64,000 nt of DNA from Dictyostelium discoideum (GCA_000004695.1 CM000154.2:128001-192000); one strand, 5' to 3'; shown: positions 1 to 12,300, counted from the stretch's first letter. Numbers and translations are program-made. Notes: generated by a model from the sequence alone, not told the origin.

Positions 1-1876
1 ATTTTTTTTTTTTTTTTTTAGTGGTCAGTTTTGTTTTATTTTATTGTTTGTTGTTTTTGGTGGTGGTTGGGTGTGTTGGTTTTCATTCCCCCACTCCCAT
101 TTAAACCCACCCTGCTATAAATTCTTTCCCCTAAAAAAAAAAAAAAAAAATTAAAATAAAAAAAAAAAAACCAATTAACTATCCCATTATTTTTGTGTGT
201 TTGTGTTATTTGAATTTCCAAAAAAAAAAAAAAAAAAAAACTAGCATTTTTTTTTTTTTTTTTTATATATCTATTTACATACTAACAGTATTGAAAAAAA
301 AAAATTTATTATTTAAACTACAAATAAAATTTTTATATACTAATAAAAACAAAAAAAAAAAAAAAATAAAAAAAAAACAATAATGATAAAAATAGTAACC
401 CCTACCATTTTATTCAAAATAAATTAAATGCTCCAATGCATTCAAAAAAATTTTATCTTGCCAAACAATACAAATGGGGTGAAAAAATACTCTATTTAAT
501 TGAAAGATTTCCAAAACAACCGATACTAAAACACTCATACTATTAATTTGAAAGCAATTAAAAAAAAAAAAAAAAAAAAAAAGAGTGAGCCACACATAGA
601 ACTGCAAATATCTGACAAAAAAAAAAAAAAAAAGAATGTGCATCATAACAACAATAAATAGATTTATTCATAGAGACCATTCCAATTTCAAAAGTTAACC
701 TTCCTTATTCATAATATGATGTGTTGGTGTACGAATTATAAACGCTATAAAAACGCATGTATAACCGTATAAAAACAAACATACATTTATATACCAATTA
801 TATTATTTCATTCATATATATAAATAAGAGAGGAACTGTTAAGAAAAAAAAAAAAAAAAAAAAATTAAAAAAAAAAAAAAAAATGAATTGAAAAAAAAAG
901 ATTAAATTTATTTTTAAATATTGGTATATTTTTTTTAAAAAATAACAATTATTATAATAATAATATAAATATGCTTTGAAATATAAATAAATAAAATTTT
1001 ATTGCAATTTACAAAAAAAAAATAAAAAATAAAAAAAAATAAAAAATAAAAAAAAATAAAAAAAATAAAAAATAAAAAATAAAAAATAAATACCACAAAC
1101 TTTAATAATGAGAGTAATAATTATTACAATAATTATTATTTTAAGATTGAAAAACTATGAGTTGAGCGAAAATATTTGAAAGCTCGTTTTTGGAAAAAGC
1201 AAAAGAAAAAAAAATAAAAAAAAAAATAACGGTTTTGGCCAAAACCACGAAAAAAAAAAAAAAAAAAAAAATTTAACCTATTCATCATTTTAAAACATAA
1301 ACTTTAAAAACCATCAAAAAAAATATTTCAAACACAAATATAAATTCATCTAACCAATTATTTTGATCTATTTTTAATTTTTTAAACAAATTAAACAATT
1401 TTTTTATTTATTTATTTATATTTTCTAAACTACCCCCCCCCCCCCCACACACCACACACCTCAAAAGTAAACTCATTTCAATAAATAATATCAAAAAAAA
1501 AAAAAAAAAAAAAAACAAAAACAACAATAATAATAATAATAATAAATTCACATGCTATGGGATATAAAAAAAAACAATTACTTTACAAATTTATAAATTT
1601 TCCAACCCCTTAACAAACAAATAATTAATTTGTAAAAAAAAGAATATAGAAATAATTAATAATATTTTTAATTTTCATTATAATAATTAAAATAATAATA
1701 ACAATAAATAAAAGTATTATCAATTGATAATATTAGGCGCACTCTTATTATACATTTTCACAGTACGATATTACACTAGGTATAGATAGAGATAATCATA
1801 TATTCATTCGATCTCTTAATATATATTTTCAAAATAACATAAAATAAAAATAAAAATAAAAATAAAAATAAAAATA

Positions 1877-2923
1877 ATGAAATCAATAATATCAAATATA
1901 AATAATATAGATAATAATCATTTAGCAGGAGGTGCATTAGCATTATGGTTTATATTAAATATTAGTACATTAATATTAAATAAATATATTTATTCATCAT
2001 TGTATTTCTATTATCCTATAACATTGACGGCGATACATATGTTTGTATGTTGGATTGGAAGTGTGGCAGTATTGCGAGTATATAAATTGATACCATTGAT
2101 AACGGTACAATGGAGTGGTAAACAATTTATAAATATAATGATTCTATCGATTTTATTTTGTTCAAATATTGTATTTGGAAATGTTTCATTACGTTGGGTT
2201 CCAGTATCGTTTATGCAAACTGTAAAGAGTTCAGTACCATTGTTTACTGTTATCTTGACTACATTATTCTTTAGTAATATTGGTGGAAAGAAAACAACAT
2301 TCACTCGTGGCACTTATTTATCGATGATTCCAATCGTTGGTGGTGTTTGCGTTGCCTCGCTATCAGAGGTGAATTTCAATCAAGCAGGTTTCATCGCTGC
2401 TTTAGCCTCAAGTATTTTATCAGCTGTTTTTGCAATCGTTTCAGGTTTGATTCTAACTCAACAAATGAATGCCGTCAATTTACTCTATTATATGTCCCCA
2501 ATATCTTGTTGTCTCCTCTTCCCTTTGAGCGCTTTCATGGAATGGAATGCTATCGCAAATGAATGGCCACTCTATGGCGAGAGTAAACCAATCGTCATTC
2601 TATTACTATCGGGTTTAATTGCTTTCCTTTTAAATACTTTCACCTTTTTAGTCATTAAATTAACTTCACCTTTAACCTACACCGTATCTGGTAATCTTAA
2701 AGTGGTCCTAAGTATTTCAATCTCAATTTTAGTCTTTAAAAATGAAACAAACTTTTTCAATGTTTTAGGTTGTGCCATAGCTATCATGGGTGTAGTTTGT
2801 TATAGTAACATTAAATATGAAGAATCAAAAGCAAAATTAGAACAACAACAACAACAATCTTTAAAACAATTAGAATCAATTTATGAAGAGAAATTAGATA
2901 AAGAATCTTTATTATCTAAATAA
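1877..2923 (+). CDS. Triose-phosphate/nucleotide-sugar transporter family (SLC35/TPT, EamA-like) multi-pass membrane protein, 348 aa
   Basis: Single uninterrupted ORF with ATG start. About 9-10 hydrophobic helices. The N-terminal segment LAGGALALWFILNISTLILNKYIY and the overall helix pattern resemble the SLC35E/TPT drug-metabolite transporter family. The C-terminus carries a poly-Q and K-rich tail. Confidence 0.6.
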   Translation: MKSIISNINNIDNNHLAGGALALWFILNISTLILNKYIYSSLYFYYPITLTAIHMFVCWIGSVAVLRVYKLIPLITVQWSGKQFINIMILSILFCSNIVFGNVSLRWVPVSFMQTVKSSVPLFTVILTTLFFSNIGGKKTTFTRGTYLSMIPIVGGVCVASLSEVNFNQAGFIAALASSILSAVFAIVSGLILTQQMNAVNLLYYMSPISCCLLFPLSAFMEWNAIANEWPLYGESKPIVILLLSGLIAFLLNTFTFLVIKLTSPLTYTVSGNLKVVLSISISILVFKNETNFFNVLGCAIAIMGVVCYSNIKYEESKAKLEQQQQQSLKQLESIYEEKLDKESLLSK

Positions 2924-2950
2924 ATAAATAAAATTAAAAATAAAAGATTG

Positions 2951-2989
<39 letters not shown>

Positions 2990-3269
2990 ATTTTTTTATT
3001 TACTAAATATTGAAGGGATTTGCATTAAGCTTTTATTTTGATTTTAAAATTGGAATAATATTATTATTATATATAAACAAAAAGCAAAAAATAAAATAAA
3101 GATCTTTTTTTTTTTTTTTTTATAAGATAGTCCAAACCAATTTATTGGTAATACAGGTGTTGTTGGTTTTAACCCCATCCATGAAGTTAAATTTTCATTT
3201 TATTTTTTTATTTTTTTTTGAAAATACATTATATTGTTATATTCTTTATCATTTAGGAGATTTTGAATT

Positions 3270-3920
3270 TTAATTTATATTATTTGTCATTTTTAAAATT
3301 TCATCAATTATTAAATTTGTATTAAAAGATTGATAATGAATTAAAGTTGGATCTATGTTGAATTGAGTTGTTTTTTTAATTTGATCTTTTTCAATAGGTG
3401 AAAACTCGACTATAATTGTTTTTTGTTTACCAAAGTGACTAATTAAATAACCCATTTCAAGTAATAAACTTAAATTTGGTTGTACCATTTCTTGATAGGC
3501 CTCAAAAAAATTATTAGTCTTTTTAAAAAATCTATTTTCATATGTAATTAAAATAATGCAAAAATCACATTTCTTAACTTCTTTTTCAATGGTATCTATT
3601 GATTTAGTAAATTCGCTATTATCATTTTGTGGTACTATTATCATATCGATTTTTAATTTAATTAACATTTCTTTTATAAAATTATTTGATTTTTCATTAT
3701 CACTATGTGCAATATACGCTCTTGCATTTCTCTTTGTAGTAATAATTGAATTTGTTGTATTAATAGTATTTGTAGTTGTGGTTGTTTTCTTTAATTGATT
3801 AAAGTTTGGTGGTATATATAAATTACTATTTCTAAATTCTAAATCTAAATCAACAACCTTATTATTATTTTTATTAAAATGGTATATGATTGGTTGATCT
3901 AAATCTGGATCTCTCCTCTT
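3270..3920 (-). CDS. Protein with a TIR-like predicted nucleotide-binding domain (PF10137/COG4271-like). Partial model; 5' extent unresolved.
   Basis: The reading frame is open on the minus strand from an AG acceptor-like site at about 3921 down to the stop at 3270. The track ORF 3270..3668 is the same frame from its first Met. RAYIAHSDNE, CDFCIILITYEN, QPNLSLLLEMGYLISHFGKQKTIIVEF and FNIDPTLIHY match the hFIxHghD / DxaIvLlTpDD / RxNVifElGyFiGkLG / LPSDl pattern of bacterial TIR-like domains. An ORF upstream in a different frame (about 3925-4268, Ser/Pro/Thr- and poly-Asn-rich, no start codon) suggests further exons, or a frame problem across the (AAT)n tract at 3947-4027. Confidence 0.45.
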   Translation of the reverse strand, partial: KRRDPDLDQPIIYHFNKNNNKVVDLDLEFRNSNLYIPPNFNQLKKTTTTTNTINTTNSIITTKRNARAYIAHSDNEKSNNFIKEMLIKLKIDMIIVPQNDNSEFTKSIDTIEKEVKKCDFCIILITYENRFFKKTNNFFEAYQEMVQPNLSLLLEMGYLISHFGKQKTIIVEFSPIEKDQIKKTTQFNIDPTLIHYQSFNTNLIIDEILKMTNNIN

Positions 3921-3945
3921 CTAAATTTGTAATATTATAATTATA

Positions 3946-4028
<83 letters not shown>

Positions 4029-4402
4029 CTAATAAAGGTATATTGTGGGATAAACTAGTTCTTAAAGGTGGGGTTGTTATATTAATAGATTCTTTATAAT
4101 TGGTGGGTGAAGTTTTTAATTTTTTAAATGGTGTCTCTGGATGTGATTGTTCTGTTGGTGGTTCTTCATTTTTTATTAATGAGGAAGATGTATTTAAAGG
4201 TGAACCTATTGTTTCAATGGGTGGTGATGGTATATTATCCTTATCATTTTTAAAAAAATCCCAAATATTTTTTTTTCTTTCAATTTCCTTTTTACTTCCA
4301 ATACCCCCTTCACTATTGTTCTATATTTAATTAATTAGTGTTTTAGTTGGATTTTGATTTTAATTTTGTTTTTTTGTTTTTTTTTTTCTCCATACAATTA
4401 AT

Positions 4403-4648
4403 TTATAAATAAATAATTTGTTTAAAACATACTAAACCTTCTAATATTTTTTCAATTTCAATATTTTTAGGTTGTGTTTGAATGGTACCAGTGGATAAAT
4501 AAAGAGTAATTGTAATTTTTTGGTAATCAATTAAAATTTTAAAAAAGATTTTATTTGGTTGTTCATTTGAGTTTAAAAATATGACCTGACTAAAAATAGT
4601 TTTCAAATGTTCATATGCCGATTCTGGTGTGATAAAAATTTTTTTCAT
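4403..4648 (-). CDS. Hypothetical 81-aa protein, possibly the 5' exon of the downstream TIR-like gene
   Basis: ATG-initiated ORF MKKIFITPESAYEHLKTIFSQVIFLNSNEQ... with composition unlike AT-rich noise. It lies on the same strand immediately upstream of the startless frame-A ORF and the TIR-like ORF. No homology recognised. Confidence 0.25.
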   Translation of the reverse strand: MKKIFITPESAYEHLKTIFSQVIFLNSNEQPNKIFFKILIDYQKITITLYLSTGTIQTQPKNIEIEKILEGLVCFKQIIYL

Positions 4649-5012
4649 GTTGATGTGGCATTTTTGTTTTTACAAACAAATAAAAAAAAAAATTAAAAAA
4701 AATTAAAAAAAAAAAAAAAAAAAAAAATCCAAATCTATTTTGACATTATTTTTATTTACCACACTTGCATTGGTGGTGTTTCTTTGTTAGCAAAATGACT
4801 CATCTTTATTTCCAGTCAATTTTTAAATATATTTGGTAGTGACTAAACAAAGATATTTTTATTTTATTTTCATTTTTAAACACAAATAAATTTCTTTTAT
4901 TTTATTTTTTTTTTTTTAATGTTTTTTTTTATTGTTTTTTTTAATTGTATTCAATTATCTATCTTTTAACATTTTTAAAAAGATTTAAACTATTAATACT
5001 AAATATAATAAA

Positions 5013-6305
5013 ATGGAAAATGAAATTGAAAATGAAGAAAAGAAATTTGATAATGATAAAATTGTAAAACTAATTATAATTGGGTGTGGTCAAAGAGGAT
5101 TTGTTTATAGTAGATATGCTATCGAAAGACCAAATAGATTAAAGATTGTTGCAGTTTGTGATCCAATTAAATTTAGAAGAGATAAATTTGGTTTAGAATT
5201 TGGATTAAACTCTAATATGATATTTGAAAATTGGAATGAAATTATTTCAATAGATAAATTTGCTGATGCAGTATTGATAGCAACACCTGATCAATTACAT
5301 TGTGAACCTGCAATTGCATTCGCCAGTAAAAAGTATCATTTATTAGTTGAGAAACCATTGGCAATAACTCTAGAAGATTGTGAAAAAATTACAGCAGCCT
5401 GCAAAGCCAACAATGTAATGTTATCAGTATGTCATGTATTAAGATATGCACCAGTGAATATAAAAATTAAACATTTAATTGATAGTGGTTTAATTGGTGA
5501 AGTATTAAATATTCAACATTTAGAACCAGTTGGATATTATCATCAAGCTCATTCATATGTTAGAGGTAATTGGAGAAACCTTTCAGGTTCAACCTTTATG
5601 TTATTATCAAAATCATGTCATGATCTTGATTTAATTCATTATTTTATGGGAGGCAGGAAATGTAAAAAAGTTTCATCATTTGGTAGTTTAACATACTTTA
5701 AAAAGGAAAATAAACCAATTGAAGCTGGTAATGCAATGAAATGTTTTGAATGTCCAATTAGTAATAAATGTCCATATAGTGCTCAAAAGATTTATTTAGA
5801 ACGTTATCCTTGGAAAAATCATGTACTAGTACCAGATAGAGAACCAACCAAAGAGAATGTTCAATTTGCCATTGAAAATGGTCCATATGGTAGATGCGTC
5901 TATGAGAGTGATAATGATGTGGTTGATCAACAAATTGTAAATTTAGAGTTTGAAGGTGGTGCACTATCTTCTTTTAGTATGGTAGCATTCACTGAGAGCA
6001 TGTGTGTACGTAAAATTAGAATCTTTGGTTCAATGGGTCAATTAGAATGTAACAATGGATATGATATCATCTATGATGACTTTAAATTTGGTCAAAAGGA
6101 AATCTTTAAACCACCTGTAATTCAAAAAACTAAAATGTCAAATCATGGTTCCTCAGATTATTATCTCATGAGATCATTTATTTATGCTATATCTGAAAAT
6201 GATCCAACTCAAATATTATCTGGTCCTGATGATACTCTAGCTTCCCATAAATTAGTATTTGATTCTGAAAATTCAAGATTAAATAATACAATTTTAAATT
6301 TTTAA
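5013..6305 (+). CDS. Gfo/Idh/MocA-family NAD(P)-dependent oxidoreductase, 430 aa
   Basis: N-terminal Rossmann motif KLIIIGCGQRGFVYSRYA. The stretch VAVCDP...FADAVLIATPDQLHCEPAIAFASKKYHLLVEKPLA is typical of the Gfo/Idh/MocA N-terminal domain, and the EKP motif is conserved. Single exon. Confidence 0.75.
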   Translation: MENEIENEEKKFDNDKIVKLIIIGCGQRGFVYSRYAIERPNRLKIVAVCDPIKFRRDKFGLEFGLNSNMIFENWNEIISIDKFADAVLIATPDQLHCEPAIAFASKKYHLLVEKPLAITLEDCEKITAACKANNVMLSVCHVLRYAPVNIKIKHLIDSGLIGEVLNIQHLEPVGYYHQAHSYVRGNWRNLSGSTFMLLSKSCHDLDLIHYFMGGRKCKKVSSFGSLTYFKKENKPIEAGNAMKCFECPISNKCPYSAQKIYLERYPWKNHVLVPDREPTKENVQFAIENGPYGRCVYESDNDVVDQQIVNLEFEGGALSSFSMVAFTESMCVRKIRIFGSMGQLECNNGYDIIYDDFKFGQKEIFKPPVIQKTKMSNHGSSDYYLMRSFIYAISENDPTQILSGPDDTLASHKLVFDSENSRLNNTILNF

Positions 6306-6429
6306 ATAAAATTAAATAAATAAATTTAAAAAAAAACCAAATGTTTTTTTTTTTTTTTTTTTTTTTAAGTGTTCAATGTAATTAGTTACATTGATATTTA
6401 TTTATTTTTTTAACTTGTCAATCGAAAAA

Positions 6430-6640
6430 ATAAGGGGATTAATAATATTATGGAAGAGGAATAAAAAGAATGAAGAGAAGAAAGAAGTATAGAAGAAAAG
6501 GAGTATAGAAGTAGAGGAGAGGGAGGAAAAGTGGAGAGGAAGGAAGGAAAGAAGGGGTGAAGAGGTATAAAGGAAGGAGGTATAAAGGAAGGAGGTATAA
6601 AGGGAGGGAAGTTGAAAAGTATGGGGGTTGAGACACATAA
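6430..6640. repeat. About 200-bp polypurine (GA-rich) tract containing three tandem copies of GGTATAAAGGAAGGAG
   Basis: The plus strand at 6430-6640 is almost entirely A/G (gaagaggaataaaaagaatgaagagaag...ggtataaaggaaggaggtataaaggaaggaggtataaaggg). It lies between the convergent 3' ends of the oxidoreductase and p80-like genes. Minus-strand ORFs 6402-6661 are artefacts of this repeat. Confidence 0.6.
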
Positions 6641-6721
6641 AATTACTGATCCACCTTCCATATTTTCTTTTGGTTTTTTTTTTGTTTTTGATTTTGATTT
6701 TGATTTGGTGTATATATAAAT

Positions 6722-6760
<39 letters not shown>

Positions 6761-6805
6761 TACTTATCATTTATATTTCTTTAAGGTGTCAAGATCTTCG
6801 GAAGT

Positions 6806-8581
6806 TCACTCGCAACAAGTAACTCTTGGAGTATAGTTACGATATCTACCAAAGAGAATATTACCAACTAAAACTCCTGCAATTACTGCAAAAAAGAGTG
6901 CAACATTAAATGTCATTCTGTAAATTAATTGGTAATAATAAAAAAAAAACATTAATATTTCATTATGTATAAAAAAAATTAATAAAATTAAAAAAAAGGT
7001 TCAACTTACGCAACAAGCATTAAAGCATAACTACATGTTAGTTCGATAGCATGTAAACATCCTCTCTGTTTTAATAAAAAAAAAAAAAAAAACAAAAAAA
7101 AATTATTATTAGTATGAATAAATTAAATAAAAAAAATAAAAAGAATTTATACATACAATTATATCTCTATAAGAGAATTTTGGATAAGAACCACTTAAGA
7201 AAGATGAATTAATTAAATTATTATCTTCTGAATCTTTTTTGTTTGGAGTCCATCTTTTTTCTAAAATACTTCTAAGGGTTTTTTCGAGTTCAAAAAAGAT
7301 AGCAAAGAAAAAGATGGCAAACCATGAACCAGCAAATTGACGGTCAGTTCTTGGTACCCAAGATTTAAAGAGGATATAGTCCAAGATACCAGTGTGAAAG
7401 TACATTCTCATGATTGGAACGGCGTCAGCAACAGAGGCGACACAATAGTCTGATGTGATTTGAGAGTTGTAGAGTTGACCAGAGGAGGAACACATCTTGG
7501 TCCAATTGGCACATTGTGACATATCAGGCATAGCCATACAAAGGGAGGAGTAAACTGGCAAAACATCACAGGTGGTAGTTGGTGAATTTCCTGAACATTT
7601 CTCACAACCATCCATTGCCATCTCTGTGCAAATACTTTTAATACCAGCGAATAATTGCATTGTGGTTGGTAAATTACTAATTGAATCGACTGATGAACAT
7701 TGTTCAACAACTGAACCTGATGCGCAGAGTTTCTTAAAGTTTGAACAACCATTCATACCTGGCATATCATGGAGACAGCTATCACCAAGAATTGAAAATG
7801 GAGCACAAATACCACTTGTTGATGATTCTTGATTACATGATTTTTGAATGGAGCATACTGTCATGTATGGCATACTCTTACAAAGGTTAAGGATATCGGC
7901 ATTTGCATTGGCAGCAGTATAAACATAGTCTGCACAACTTGGATCGGATGGATTGGTGAAACAATCTGTTGCAGGTGTTGGCTCATCAGTACAAATTCCC
8001 GAGGAGATTGGTGAACTTGCCATGTTACCAGAAGAAGCACACATTTGGGTCCAGTTGGCACATTGACCCATCTCTGGCATTGCAAGACAAAGAGTGGAAT
8101 AAACTGTTAATACATCACAAGTGGCATTTAATATTGTGCATTTTTCACAACCTGTCATTGTCATTTCATTACAAATACTTTTAATATTTGCCCACATTTT
8201 CATTGTAGTTGGAAGATCGGTAACAGAGTCAACGGTTGAACATTGTTCAACGACTGAACCGGATGCACATAATTTCTTAAAGTTATTACAACCACTCATG
8301 CCTGGCATATCGTGAAGACAACTATCACCAAGAATTGAGAATGGATCACAAATACCACTTGTTGAGGATTCTTGATTACATGATTGTTGAATGGTACAAA
8401 CTGGCATATAAGGCATGCTACCACATAAATTATTGATATCTGCTGTTATATTTGCCAATGGATATTGAAAATTGGTACAACTAGCATCACTTGAATTTGT
8501 GACACAATCAACTTGTCCTTGAACTAAAAATAAAGAACAACTAATTAAAATGAAAAATAATAAGCCTGATATTACTTTCAT
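6806..8581 (-). CDS. p80: p80-like Ctr-family copper-transporter-like membrane protein with a large duplicated Cys-rich lumenal N-terminal domain; 3 exons, about 530 aa
   Basis: Exons approximately complement(7157..8581), complement(7010..7065) and complement(6806..6917). Signal peptide MKVISGLLFFILISCSLFLVQG. Two about 190-aa Cys-rich repeats (NLCGSMPYMPVCTIQQSCNQESSTSGICDPFSILGDSCLHDMPGM... then NLCKSMPYMTVCSIQKSCNQESSTSGICAPFSILGDSCLHDMPGM...). The C-terminus carries the Ctr signature: TM1 MRMYFHTGILDYILFKSW..FAGSWFAIFFFAIFFE, an MxxxM motif (MLVAM) in spliced exon 2, GxxxG (GVLVG) and a terminal CC in exon 3. Introns use GTATGT/GTAAGT donors and AG acceptors and the frame is restored. The architecture matches the described Dictyostelium p80 endosomal protein. 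Confidence 0.7.
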
Positions 8582-9311
8582 TTTTTTCTATATATATATT
8601 ATATTGCTTGTATGTTTGGGTGTGTGAGTGTGTGTTTTTATTATTTTTTTTTTTTTTTCTATTTTATTTTTTATTTTTATTTTTTTTTTAATTGATTTTT
8701 AATTATTAATAATTTATTATTATTTATTACTATTATTTATTAAAAAAAAAATAATAAAATAAAGAAAAAAAAATAAATAAATTTAGACAATTAGAATTTT
8801 AATTTACCCAATAATTGTATTTGAACGAATGAAACTCAAAAATAAAAAAAATAAAAAAATAAAAAAAAAAATAAAAAAAATTAAAAAAATTAAAATGAAA
8901 AAAAAAAAAAAAAAAAAAAAAATCTTGTGGGGACAAATGTTTTTCAATTAAAATTGAACTTGGGTATTTTTGTAAAAACACAATTAAATAATAAAGAAAT
9001 AATAAAAAAAAAATAAAAACTATATATTCTTTTTTTTTTTTATTTTTTATTTTTCCTTTTTCAATTTATTCAATCATTTCTTTTAATTTATTTTTTTCCC
9101 AATTTATTTAATCATTTTTTTTTTTATTATTTTTTTTTCCCATTTAAAATTTATTTTTTTTAATTTTTTTTTTTTATTTTTTTTTTTTTTTTTTTTTACT
9201 TTTATAATTTTTTTTTTTAATTTATTTTTTTTTTTAATTTTTTTTTTTTACTTTTATTTTTTTTTTCAATTTTTTTATTAATTGTGATTTATATATTTGT
9301 TTATTCAATAA

Positions 9312-12300
9312 ATGAGGAGCGAAGCACAAGTTCCTCCAGCACAAAAAGTTTATTATGAAGAACTTTTTCAAATTGCTGATGTGGACAAAGATGGAGTAAT
9401 TGGTTTAAACGATGCATCATTTTTTAGAAATTCAATGTTATCAAATGATATTTTAAGAGATGTAATTACTTTTTTTTAATTTATAATAATAAATAAGTAA
9501 ATAAAAAAAAATAAAAAAAACAAACCAATAGTTTTACTAAATTTTTTTTATTATTATTTTATTCATTAATAATTTTAGATTTGGCAATTATCAGATGTGA
9601 ATAATGGATATTTAAATATTGACGATTTTTTTGTAGCATTAAAATTAGTTTCATTGGCACAAATGGGAGCACCAGTTACTTTGGATAGTATTAAATTAAT
9701 ACCAGTTATTCCACCACCAAAATTAAATGATATTCCCCCATTAAAAAATGATGTAGGTTTTAATTCAAAAAAAAAAAAAAAAAAAAAAAAAAACCATTTA
9801 TAAACACTCATATTTCTAATAATAACATAATAATAATAATAATAATAATAATTAATAAAAGTGGATAATAAGTAATGGTGAAAAACAAAATTATATAGAT
9901 TTATTTAATAAATATGATGAGGATGGTGATGGATTTATTTTAGGATCACAAGCTAAAACTATATTTGGTACAAGTGGATTGCCAACAAAAATGTTGAGCC
10001 ATATTTGGAATTTATCAGATGTTAGTAAGGATCAAAAATTGGATTGTCAAGAGTTTATAATGGCAACATTTCTCATTAGATCAGTATTAAAAGGTTATGA
10101 ACTACCAAATAAATTACCAGAATCATTGATTACATCTTCACATTATATTAGTTCGGCTGGTGTACCATCACCAAAGATTCCAGAATGGTTAATACCACCA
10201 CCCGAGAGAATAATATATGAAGATTTATTCAATAAGAACCAACAGGGAGGTATATTCACAGGTTCTCAAGCAAAAGTTCTCTTTGAGAAATCTGGTCTCT
10301 CCAATCAAGATTTGAAATTGATTTGGGATTTAGCTGACCACAATCAAGAACAAGTTTTAGATAAACATAAATTTGTAATTGCAATGTTTTTAATCTCTCA
10401 AAGAAAAAAAGGTAAAGAATTACCTCAATCACTTCCTCAACTATTATTAGAATCTTCAAAGAGTACATTCAATCCTTCTTCAATAACTTCACCACCACCA
10501 CAATCTTCACCACAATCTTCTCAACTACAACAACAACCACCACAACAGCAACAACAAACTGGTGATTCAAAATATAATATAAATTTAAATGATTTAGTTT
10601 CAAATACCACACCAATTGGCCAACCAAATATACAACCAACTACTACTACTACTACAACACCTGCAACTGCTTCAGGTGGCTTGAATGTTAGTGGTTTACT
10701 TTCACCACCACCTCAACAGCAATCACCTTCAATTGTAGGTACACCACCTTCTACTATAACAAGAGAAGGATCATTTACATTTGATAATAGTGGTGGTGGT
10801 AATAATTTATTAGCAAAACCACCAAGAAGTAATAGTATTACACGTATGAATTCATTCCAACATCAATTACCACAACAACAACAACAACAAGTTTCACCAC
10901 AATCGACCATTTCAAATACTAGTATTGGTAGTGGTAGTAGTAGTTTCTTATCAACTAATGCTACAACATCATCACCACCACCAATACCATCAACATCTTC
11001 ACAACCAACTTCATCAAATAATAGTTCTATAACTAGTAATAATAACAATCCAATTAGTCCAACATCCACCAATATTACTCAATTATTTGAAAACATTGAA
11101 AAAGTTAAACAACAAGTATTTGAACAAGAGAGAATTAGACAAGAGGAAATTCAAGTTAAATTGAACCAAGAATTACAATTGGAAGCAGAGTTAAAACAAC
11201 AACTCGCACAAGAACAACAACAATTAGATGAGGTTAGGGAAAATGTAAAAGAAGAGGAAATCAAACTATCCTCTATTAAAGCTGATAATCAATCATTGAA
11301 AGAACAAATTTCAACCGCTAGAGTCGATATTAAATCATTAAAATCACAGTTGGAACAACAATCATCACTACTCAGAGAAAAGAGTGAATTGTTTGACGAA
11401 CAAAATGAAGCACTCTCACACTTGAATGATGATCTTAAAGAAAAACAACAAGAGTTACAAAAGAATAAACAACAAATCGAACAATTATTGTCATCAATTG
11501 AATCGATTAAACAAAATCGTACCGATGTAAAGAATCAAATTTCAACTGTAACCAAACAATTGAATGACTCTAAATTAGAATTAAAACAATTAGCTGAGGA
11601 ACAAAAACAACAAAAACAAAAATTAGCAGAAGAACAAAAACAATTACAACAATTACAACAACAACAACAACAACAAGCAACTTCAAAATCTTTAACCTCT
11701 GTTAAATCTGATGATAATATAACTTTCCTTAGTGGTATTAATACAAATACCACCTCTACAAACACAGCAACTTCAATTCCAACTGCAAGTGTAAGTGGAA
11801 ATGATAATTGGGACTTTTTTAATTCACCACCAGTTAAATCATCATCATCCTTACCAACTTCACCATTTGATGATGATAAAACTTTTGTACCAACATTTAC
11901 AACTACCACCACCACAACTAATAATAATAATAATAATAACACTATAAATACTAGTAATGGTAATTTAACATTTACATCACCAGTTAAATCAACTGTTAAT
12001 CAATTGAAATCATCAAATTCATCAGTTGGTGGAACAGGTGGTAGTGTTTCAACTAGAAAATTAAGTGGTGCAAGTGTCAGTAGTAACAATAGTTTCAATG
12101 ATAATACTAGTATAGATACATTAAATAATCATTTTGGTTCCGATCAATTTTCATTCAACTCATTTGGAAGTAATAATTTAACAGCACCACCAACAACCTC
12201 ATCTTCAACAAATAAAGTTCAATCAGATTTCTTTGGTGTCGGTGGAGGAAATAAAGATCCATTTGGTGGTGATTCAAATAATAATCCATTTGGTGAGGAA

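Follow-up and report, generated by a model that had tools for sequence, protein, structure and literature searches.

Bacterial CAP12/Pycsar effectors, represented by SfTIR-STING (7un8), TIR-STING (9lmq), PycTIR (8jsj) and PADLOC PDC-S35 candidates, carry the TIR domain family PF10137 (CAP12-PCTIR_TIR), the class to which the anti-phage effectors TIR-STING and PycTIR belong; by homology, the mechanism of the class would be a ligand-driven oligomerisation of TIR domains that builds a composite NAD+ hydrolase (NADase) site around a conserved Glu. The same family is present in the social amoeba Dictyostelium discoideum, where the paralogues TirB, TirC and TirD fall inside the bacterial and archaeal CAP12/Pycsar TIRs, near SfTIR-STING (Culbertson et al. 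2026, bioRxiv 10.64898/2026.04.30.722052). We describe here the gene for TirD, tirD, in strain AX4, where it occupies positions 3270-4648 on the minus strand of a 64 000-nucleotide (nt) stretch, hereafter the window (GCA_000004695.1 CM000154.2:128001-192000; coordinates count from its first letter). The gene is already known: its name, phylogeny, gene-model correction, biochemistry and knock-outs were published in May 2026, and tirD is the name given to the locus there (Culbertson et al.). The family membership, the gene structure and the location of the frame error are from the present analysis; the single transcript, the oligomerisation and the lack of NADase activity in vitro are taken from that paper.

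TirD shares with the bacterial effectors, besides PF10137 itself, the H..(S/G), L-x-T and E-x-G-Y motifs, a Glu at the catalytic position, and oligomerisation (Culbertson et al.). Unlike them it has no STING, cyclic nucleotide monophosphate (cNMP)-binding or other bacterial sensor domain and no operon, it has an orphan N-terminus of 72 amino acids (aa) and a poly-Asn linker, and in its TIR domain it has the replacements G278S, DD333/334 to EN, and R352Q. It therefore shares a domain with the CBASS, Pycsar and PDC-S35 systems but is a member of none of them, having no sensor domain, housekeeping-type eukaryotic neighbours, an intron and 22% GC. TirC and TirB of D. discoideum belong to the same horizontally acquired TIR clade as TirD; TirC, which has an N-terminal hydrophobic helix, forms filaments and is a potent and toxic NADase, while no such activity is seen for TirD in vitro (Culbertson et al.). 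The canonical eukaryotic TIRs (TLR, MyD88, SARM1, plant TNLs and Dictyostelium TirA) fall in the Pfam families PF01582/PF13676, which TirD does not match. What they have in common with the class of TirD is the general TIR/flavodoxin-like fold and an action driven by oligomerisation.

We read the locus, with a probability of about 85%, as a single gene, tirD, that encodes a 421-aa protein and is split in the AX4 reference by one extra base. The protein consists of a 72-aa N-terminal alpha/beta domain, a disordered linker of ~200 aa rich in Ser/Pro/Thr and then poly-Asn, and a C-terminal TIR domain.

Gene structure

Translation in three frames gives three minus-strand pieces, each in its own frame: one initiated by Met from 4648, a start-less one with Ser/Pro/Thr and poly-Asn, and the TIR piece. 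The AX4 annotation divides them between two genes, DDB_G0287437 and DDB_G0287321, whereas the AX2 annotation has one gene with one intron (Culbertson et al.). The locus is that of D. discoideum AX4, the 132-aa minus-strand open reading frame (ORF) at 3668-3270 being DDB_G0287321 at 100% identity. A protein of the sister species D. cf. discoideum, P0002 (NCBI ACTFIY_002647, 338 aa), joins all three pieces and is 68% identical across the whole of a 216-aa query taken from the TIR frame.

Exon 1 (4433-4648) encodes 72 aa, MKKIFITPES...EKILEGL, in an ORF from the ATG at 4648, and its product shares 94% identity with the N-terminus of P0002. It is followed by the single intron, 4321-4432 (112 nt, GTATGT...ATATAG, 14% GC against 22% in the exons), with the donor TTA/GTATGT at 4432 and the acceptor ATATAG/AAC at 4321 (slashes mark splice points). 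The spliced junction GGTTTA/AACAATAG (also given as GGTTTA/AACAATAGTGAAGG) is exactly the exonic sequence of AX2 in the portion of Supplementary Table 2 of Culbertson et al. available for comparison, the intron position agrees with the gene model of P0002, and RNA sequencing and cDNA are reported in its support (Culbertson et al.). At this first junction the intron is an ordinary Dictyostelium one. An 81-aa Met-initiated ORF at 4403-4648, listed in a sequence-only reading of this DNA that preceded our analysis, does exist, but the exon ends after 72 codons (4648-4433), the rest being read-through into the intron.

Exon 2 runs from 4320 through the stop TAA at 3272-3270 (3270-4320). Its upstream part, in the frame entered from exon 1 (3877-4320), encodes the Ser/Pro/Thr-rich and then poly-Asn linker, is open to the TAA at 3876-3874, and corresponds to the 3′ part of DDB_G0287437; the amino-acid sequence of the linker is conserved with D. 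cf. discoideum. This is the start-less Ser/Pro/Thr and poly-Asn ORF of the sequence-only reading, a real one, although it spans 4320-3877 rather than 4268-3925. The poly-Asn is encoded by an (AAT)n tract that Tandem Repeats Finder (TRF) places at 3933-4028 with 32 units, not at 3947-4027 as had been given, and that in D. cf. discoideum exceeds the AX4 length by ~48 nt. The downstream part, in the TIR frame (3270-3920), is open for 216 codons to the same TAA at 3272-3270.

That a single tirD transcript crosses both AX4 'genes' is supported by a polymerase chain reaction (PCR) on cDNA, which gave one product (Culbertson et al.). Of the primers used there, ECO105 lies at 4223-4199 and ECO106 at 3719-3690 in the window, so that the pair flanks the repeat and the site of the frame error.

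Location of the frame error

The entry frame stops at the TAA at 3876-3874, and the TIR frame is closed on its upstream side by a TAG at 3923-3921; the switch between them must therefore fall within the 44 nt of 3920-3877, where the frame change is necessary in AX4 because stop codons bound each frame. This interval is outside the (AAT)32 tract, directly on its 3′ side, the error being ~15-20 nt downstream of the repeat. The frame discordance of the sequence-only reading is thus real. Of its two proposed causes, unannotated introns or a frameshift or length change masked by the tract, both have a part, as one intron (4432-4321) and a one-base frame error, with the correction that the error is beside the tract.

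In a DNA alignment with the D. cf. discoideum locus (91% identity), AX4 has GGAGAGATCC where the sister species has GGA-AGATCC, a difference of 1 nt. Judged from this alignment, the extra base within 3920-3877 is most likely in GGAGAGATCC, at about 3916-3912; if it is an error of the reference, the sequence expected at the site is GAGGAAGATCC, one base fewer. Deleting one base there yields a continuous coding sequence of 1266 nt for 421 aa. The corrected AX4 reading frame is ...NITNLEEEDPDLDQP... (...NYNYNITNLEEEDPDLDQPIIYHF...), parallel to ...ITNLEKEDPDLDQP... (...YITNLEKEDPDLDQPIIYHF...) in D. cf. discoideum. In the corrected model the Glu of LLLEMGY, codon GAA at 3456-3458, is residue 360, equal to E360 as numbered from AX2 and named as the putative catalytic glutamate of TirD (Culbertson et al.). 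This agreement is an independent check on the single intron, on the retention of the poly-Asn and on the one-base correction together.

The extra base in 3920-3877 would not be the only difference from AX2. In the part of the published AX2 tirD sequence that could be compared, the first 399 nt of genomic sequence and the exon junction are identical to the window, and the AX4 version differs by substitutions at 4161 and 4140. At both positions AX4 has C and AX2 has A, D. cf. discoideum agrees with AX2, and the effect is twice a change of Thr to Pro in the linker. AX2 and AX4 are laboratory strains from the same isolate, so that three AX4-specific differences within 250 nt beside a long repeat point to read errors in the reference rather than to mutations. 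Most probably, then, the extra base is a sequencing error beside (AAT)32, and neither an intron nor a change in repeat length; the pattern suggests an AX4 reference prone to errors around the tract, with 4161 and 4140 as two further probable base errors.

Family membership of the TIR domain

The 216-aa translation of 3920-3273 (minus strand) matches Pfam PF10137 with E=3.6e-13; the score of 50 bits exceeds the gathering cutoff (24.7), and the match spans residues 69-172 of the translation and profile positions 3-99 of 119. The matched domain, at 3405-3716 in the window, is also seen with PADLOC and in an alignment of bacterial motifs, and the TIR fold probably extends to ~3290. Five PADLOC PDC-S35 models matched (best E=3.8e-12), as did two CBASS 'Effector TIR' models and PycTIR. 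Membership in PF10137/COG4271, as the sequence-only reading had it, is therefore upheld by the Pfam score above cutoff and the PDC-S35 match. Two other families it had named, PF13676 and PF08937, gave no match in the Pfam search with E up to 10, nor did PF01582, leaving PF10137 as the sole hit. No NCBIfam model matches the TIR-frame translation; among PDB sequences phmmer found no real match to the TIR region, and a tblastn search of plasmids was likewise empty. A family profile that includes TirD matches the solved structures of TIR-STING/Cap12 (9lmq, 4.6e-11; 7un8, 3.4e-8) and PycTIR (8jsj, 1.5e-4). An hhalign comparison of TirD with an alignment that itself contains TirD is circular and was disregarded.

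Bacterial members were collected by a search seeded with a COG4271-like consensus, which brought in >7,800 proteins of the PF10137 family encoded in prokaryotic genomes and metagenomes. E360 occupies an E column that is invariant in 23 bacterial PF10137 members and that aligns to the E in RDNVVFEFG of PDB 9lmq; it is the equivalent of the catalytic Glu of the TIR-STING/CAP12 TIRs. The reference alignment for motifs is one narrow bacterial subfamily, in which apparent 'conservation' is overstated, and it is against this set that the residues of TirD are to be read. TirD keeps H277, T310, I316-E317-K318, L329, T331, E360, G362 and D395, and replaces G278 (S), D333/D334 (E, N), R352 (Q) and the RQN triplet. 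In strand A, AYIAHSDNE, the H is kept and G has become S; in strand C, CIILITYEN, L-x-T is kept and DD has become EN. Set against that one subfamily, the replaced residues suggest that the catalytic surroundings of E360 may be degraded.

The structure predictions made here are single-sequence AlphaFold2 models of low confidence. The TIR model alternates beta and alpha elements, and its best Foldseek match in the PDB has E=0.13, with TIR-STING 9lmq at rank 4 (E=0.19). Confident AlphaFold models of TirD that resemble SfTIR-STING have been published (Culbertson et al.).

Alternative explanations

Several results weigh against a single intact tirD in the family named. In the D. cf. discoideum assembly (GCA_054859205.1) the frame is likewise broken near the repeat, though not at the same position, and 28 nt of the TIR domain are deleted, so that real decay of tirD in this clade is possible. 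The choice of the exact base in AX4, and of an error over a mutation in the AX4 lineage, would follow from the alignment with D. cf. discoideum and from the statement in the paper on other genomes. An hhalign comparison of TirD alone with the bacterial-only narrow subfamily is weak (P=3.2e-4, probability 39%; best of 30 shuffles, P=2.1e-3). The AlphaFold2 models have a predicted local distance difference test (pLDDT) score of 56 for the TIR domain and 53 for the N-terminal domain, and Foldseek found nothing significant for them in the PDB. Expression of tirD is very low (Culbertson et al.).

Some of these points are the substance of the best surviving alternative, which we consider unlikely: that the AX3/AX4 lineage truly carries the extra base, or that tirD is decaying throughout the clade, so that tirD of AX4 is a frameshifted pseudogene whose products are a truncated N-terminal protein and at most a 132-aa TIR fragment. 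It agrees with the AX4 sequence as given, which is frame-discordant, and with the state of D. cf. discoideum tirD (L001:4001-5351). There an extra A (AATAAATAAT) stands at the end of the longer (AAT)n tract, and the 28-nt deletion, between two AAAT microhomologies in the TIR core and opposite window ~3600-3573, takes out IDTIEKEVK, after which the shifted frame runs into a stop. These disruptions mark either a pseudogene or an assembly error. The model of P0002 bridges both of them by invented introns, at the cost of the poly-Asn tract and the core strand CDFCIILITYEN, and P0002 has no precomputed PF10137 hit. The very low expression and the lack of NADase activity reported for TirD (Culbertson et al.) fit a pseudogene as well. 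On the other side, two substitutions and an indel fall within 250 nt, with AX2 (in the part of its sequence compared) and/or the sister species against AX4 each time, which is typical of read errors beside a long repeat. Downstream of the shift the TIR frame is open for 216 codons in a genome of 22% GC, which is unlikely for an old pseudogene. Moreover, the stop is absent from other D. discoideum genomes (Culbertson et al.).

A second intron is very improbable. Exhaustive enumeration of GT..AG pairs found an in-frame solution across the (AAT)n tract, with the donor A/GTTTAT at 4055 and the acceptor GGAGAG/ at 3911 (145 nt), which would restore the frame and leave the poly-Asn untranslated; the NCBI model of P0002 has an analogous intron, INITTPPL/GIKKEDPD. 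Dictyostelium introns generally have GTAAGT or GTATGT donors and AT-rich acceptors, and neither GTTTAT nor GGAGAG resembles the validated GTATGT..ATATAG of tirD. ITNLE(E/K)E, whose residues are conserved when the frame is read through, would be lost with the intron, and the Glu would move to about residue 312, against E360 in the paper. The AX2 annotation is single-intron, and the poly-Asn is counted as part of TirD (Culbertson et al.). Repair of the frame by introns only, for which there are 245 two-intron GT..AG solutions, was rejected, since the sole solution that keeps exon 2 largely intact is this one (4055 to 3911), which fails on its splice sites and on E360.

Least probable of all are two independent genes as in AX4, DDB_G0287437 for the N-terminal domain with the linker and DDB_G0287321 for a 132-aa TIR fragment from Met 3668, which match the reference annotation and of which the 132-aa protein stands in NCBI and UniProt, but the PF10137 match begins at 3716, upstream of that Met, so that the product would be without the first beta-strand motif AYIAHSDNE, between the two parts lies no Met and no promoter-like spacer rich in AT, D. 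cf. discoideum conserves the 'intergenic' stretch at the protein level, and one cDNA PCR product runs across it (Culbertson et al.).

With tirD as one gene, the ORF of DDB_G0287321 (3270-3668) starts at an internal Met within the TIR domain, 48 nt downstream of the start of the Pfam match. The deposited 132-aa protein is an annotation artefact, a domain fragment truncated at its N-terminus, and together with P0002 (338 aa) it makes two misleading deposited protein models.

N-terminal domain

The 72-aa N-terminal domain is, by sequence, an orphan with no detectable relatives outside Dictyostelium. Apart from two spurious matches to repeat proteins, a phmmer search against 1.84 billion representatives returned the sister-species orthologue alone, and nothing was found in Pfam (E up to 10), PADLOC, NCBIfam or PDB sequences. 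Culbertson et al. report a small N-terminal domain with a partial KH-like fold in TirB and in some homologues of TirD.

Two ideas about this domain were rejected. The N-terminal domain of RNase HIII (PF11858/DUF3378), considered for its 'YxSGxxxxQ' motif and beta-alpha-beta-beta-beta-alpha order, gave P=0.14 and a probability of 0.4% in hhalign, equal to shuffled controls. A bacterial N-terminal domain transferred together with the TIR domain was also considered; the N-termini of 39 bacterial PF10137 proteins (~250 aa) are heterogeneous and helical, unlike that of TirD.

Genomic surroundings

The window is AT-rich, with 17-31% GC, as Dictyostelium DNA should be. tirD lies between a TPT-family transporter gene (1877-2923, plus strand) and a GFO/IDH/MocA oxidoreductase gene (5013-6305, plus strand), and the same two genes flank it in AX4 and in D. 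cf. discoideum. With exons of 22% GC, an intron and syntenic flanking genes, tirD is resident in a eukaryotic genome. The tir loci have likewise been described as syntenic and as having no bacterial neighbours (Culbertson et al.). No paralogue of tirD was found in the window.

Directly upstream of the tirD start, ~55 nt of almost pure T on the gene strand (4670-4727) lie in the 364-nt divergent intergenic region that tirD has in common with the GFO/IDH/MocA gene. Such T runs are typical of Dictyostelium promoters. Downstream of the stop is a relatively GC-rich segment (3120-3180, ...ACCAATAAATTGGTTTGGACTATC...), conserved in D. cf. discoideum (L001 ~5385-5420), where it is nearer the stop; it has no tRNA or Rfam match, and no tRNA or Rfam family was found in window 1-12000.

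Origin and function

A possible horizontal origin of the domain, raised in the sequence-only reading, is the conclusion of the published phylogeny: the TIR domain is of prokaryotic origin and entered as tirC at the base of Dictyostelia, and tirD is a duplicate that arose at the base of the genus Dictyostelium (Culbertson et al.). The same reading had also offered an NAD+-processing module, which for TirD has so far not been borne out. The purified protein showed no NADase activity, full-length or truncated, with or without the crowding agent polyethylene glycol (PEG), and in yeast TirD forms self-assembled puncta and is mildly toxic, both independently of E360 (Culbertson et al.).

By analogy with its bacterial relatives, in which assembly turns on NAD+ hydrolysis, TirD would act via self-association of TIR domains into higher-order assemblies. 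The Glu is kept, but several residues near it that the family conserves are replaced. Because no NADase activity was seen in vitro, and puncta and toxicity do not depend on E360, TirD is most likely either catalytically silent, a scaffold or regulator that oligomerises, or else an NADase that would need a trigger. The N-terminal domain is probably a sensor or regulatory module, and we infer that the amoeba-specific N-terminus and linker may stand in for the bacterial sensor domain.

Two bolder possibilities are speculative and, to us, doubtful: that tirD is being lost in the D. discoideum clade, or that the orphan 72-aa domain is a sensor invented in the amoeba that gates TIR assembly. If the AX4 frameshift and the D. 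cf. discoideum deletion were both real, a horizontally acquired and potentially toxic immune domain would have been independently pseudogenised in close relatives.

The present analysis adds the positions of the AX4 reference errors (3920-3877; 4161; 4140) and flags the two misleading protein models. tirD itself is part of a recent, well-documented transfer of an anti-phage TIR effector domain from bacteria to eukaryotes, and is useful for learning how eukaryotes tame toxic bacterial immune modules.

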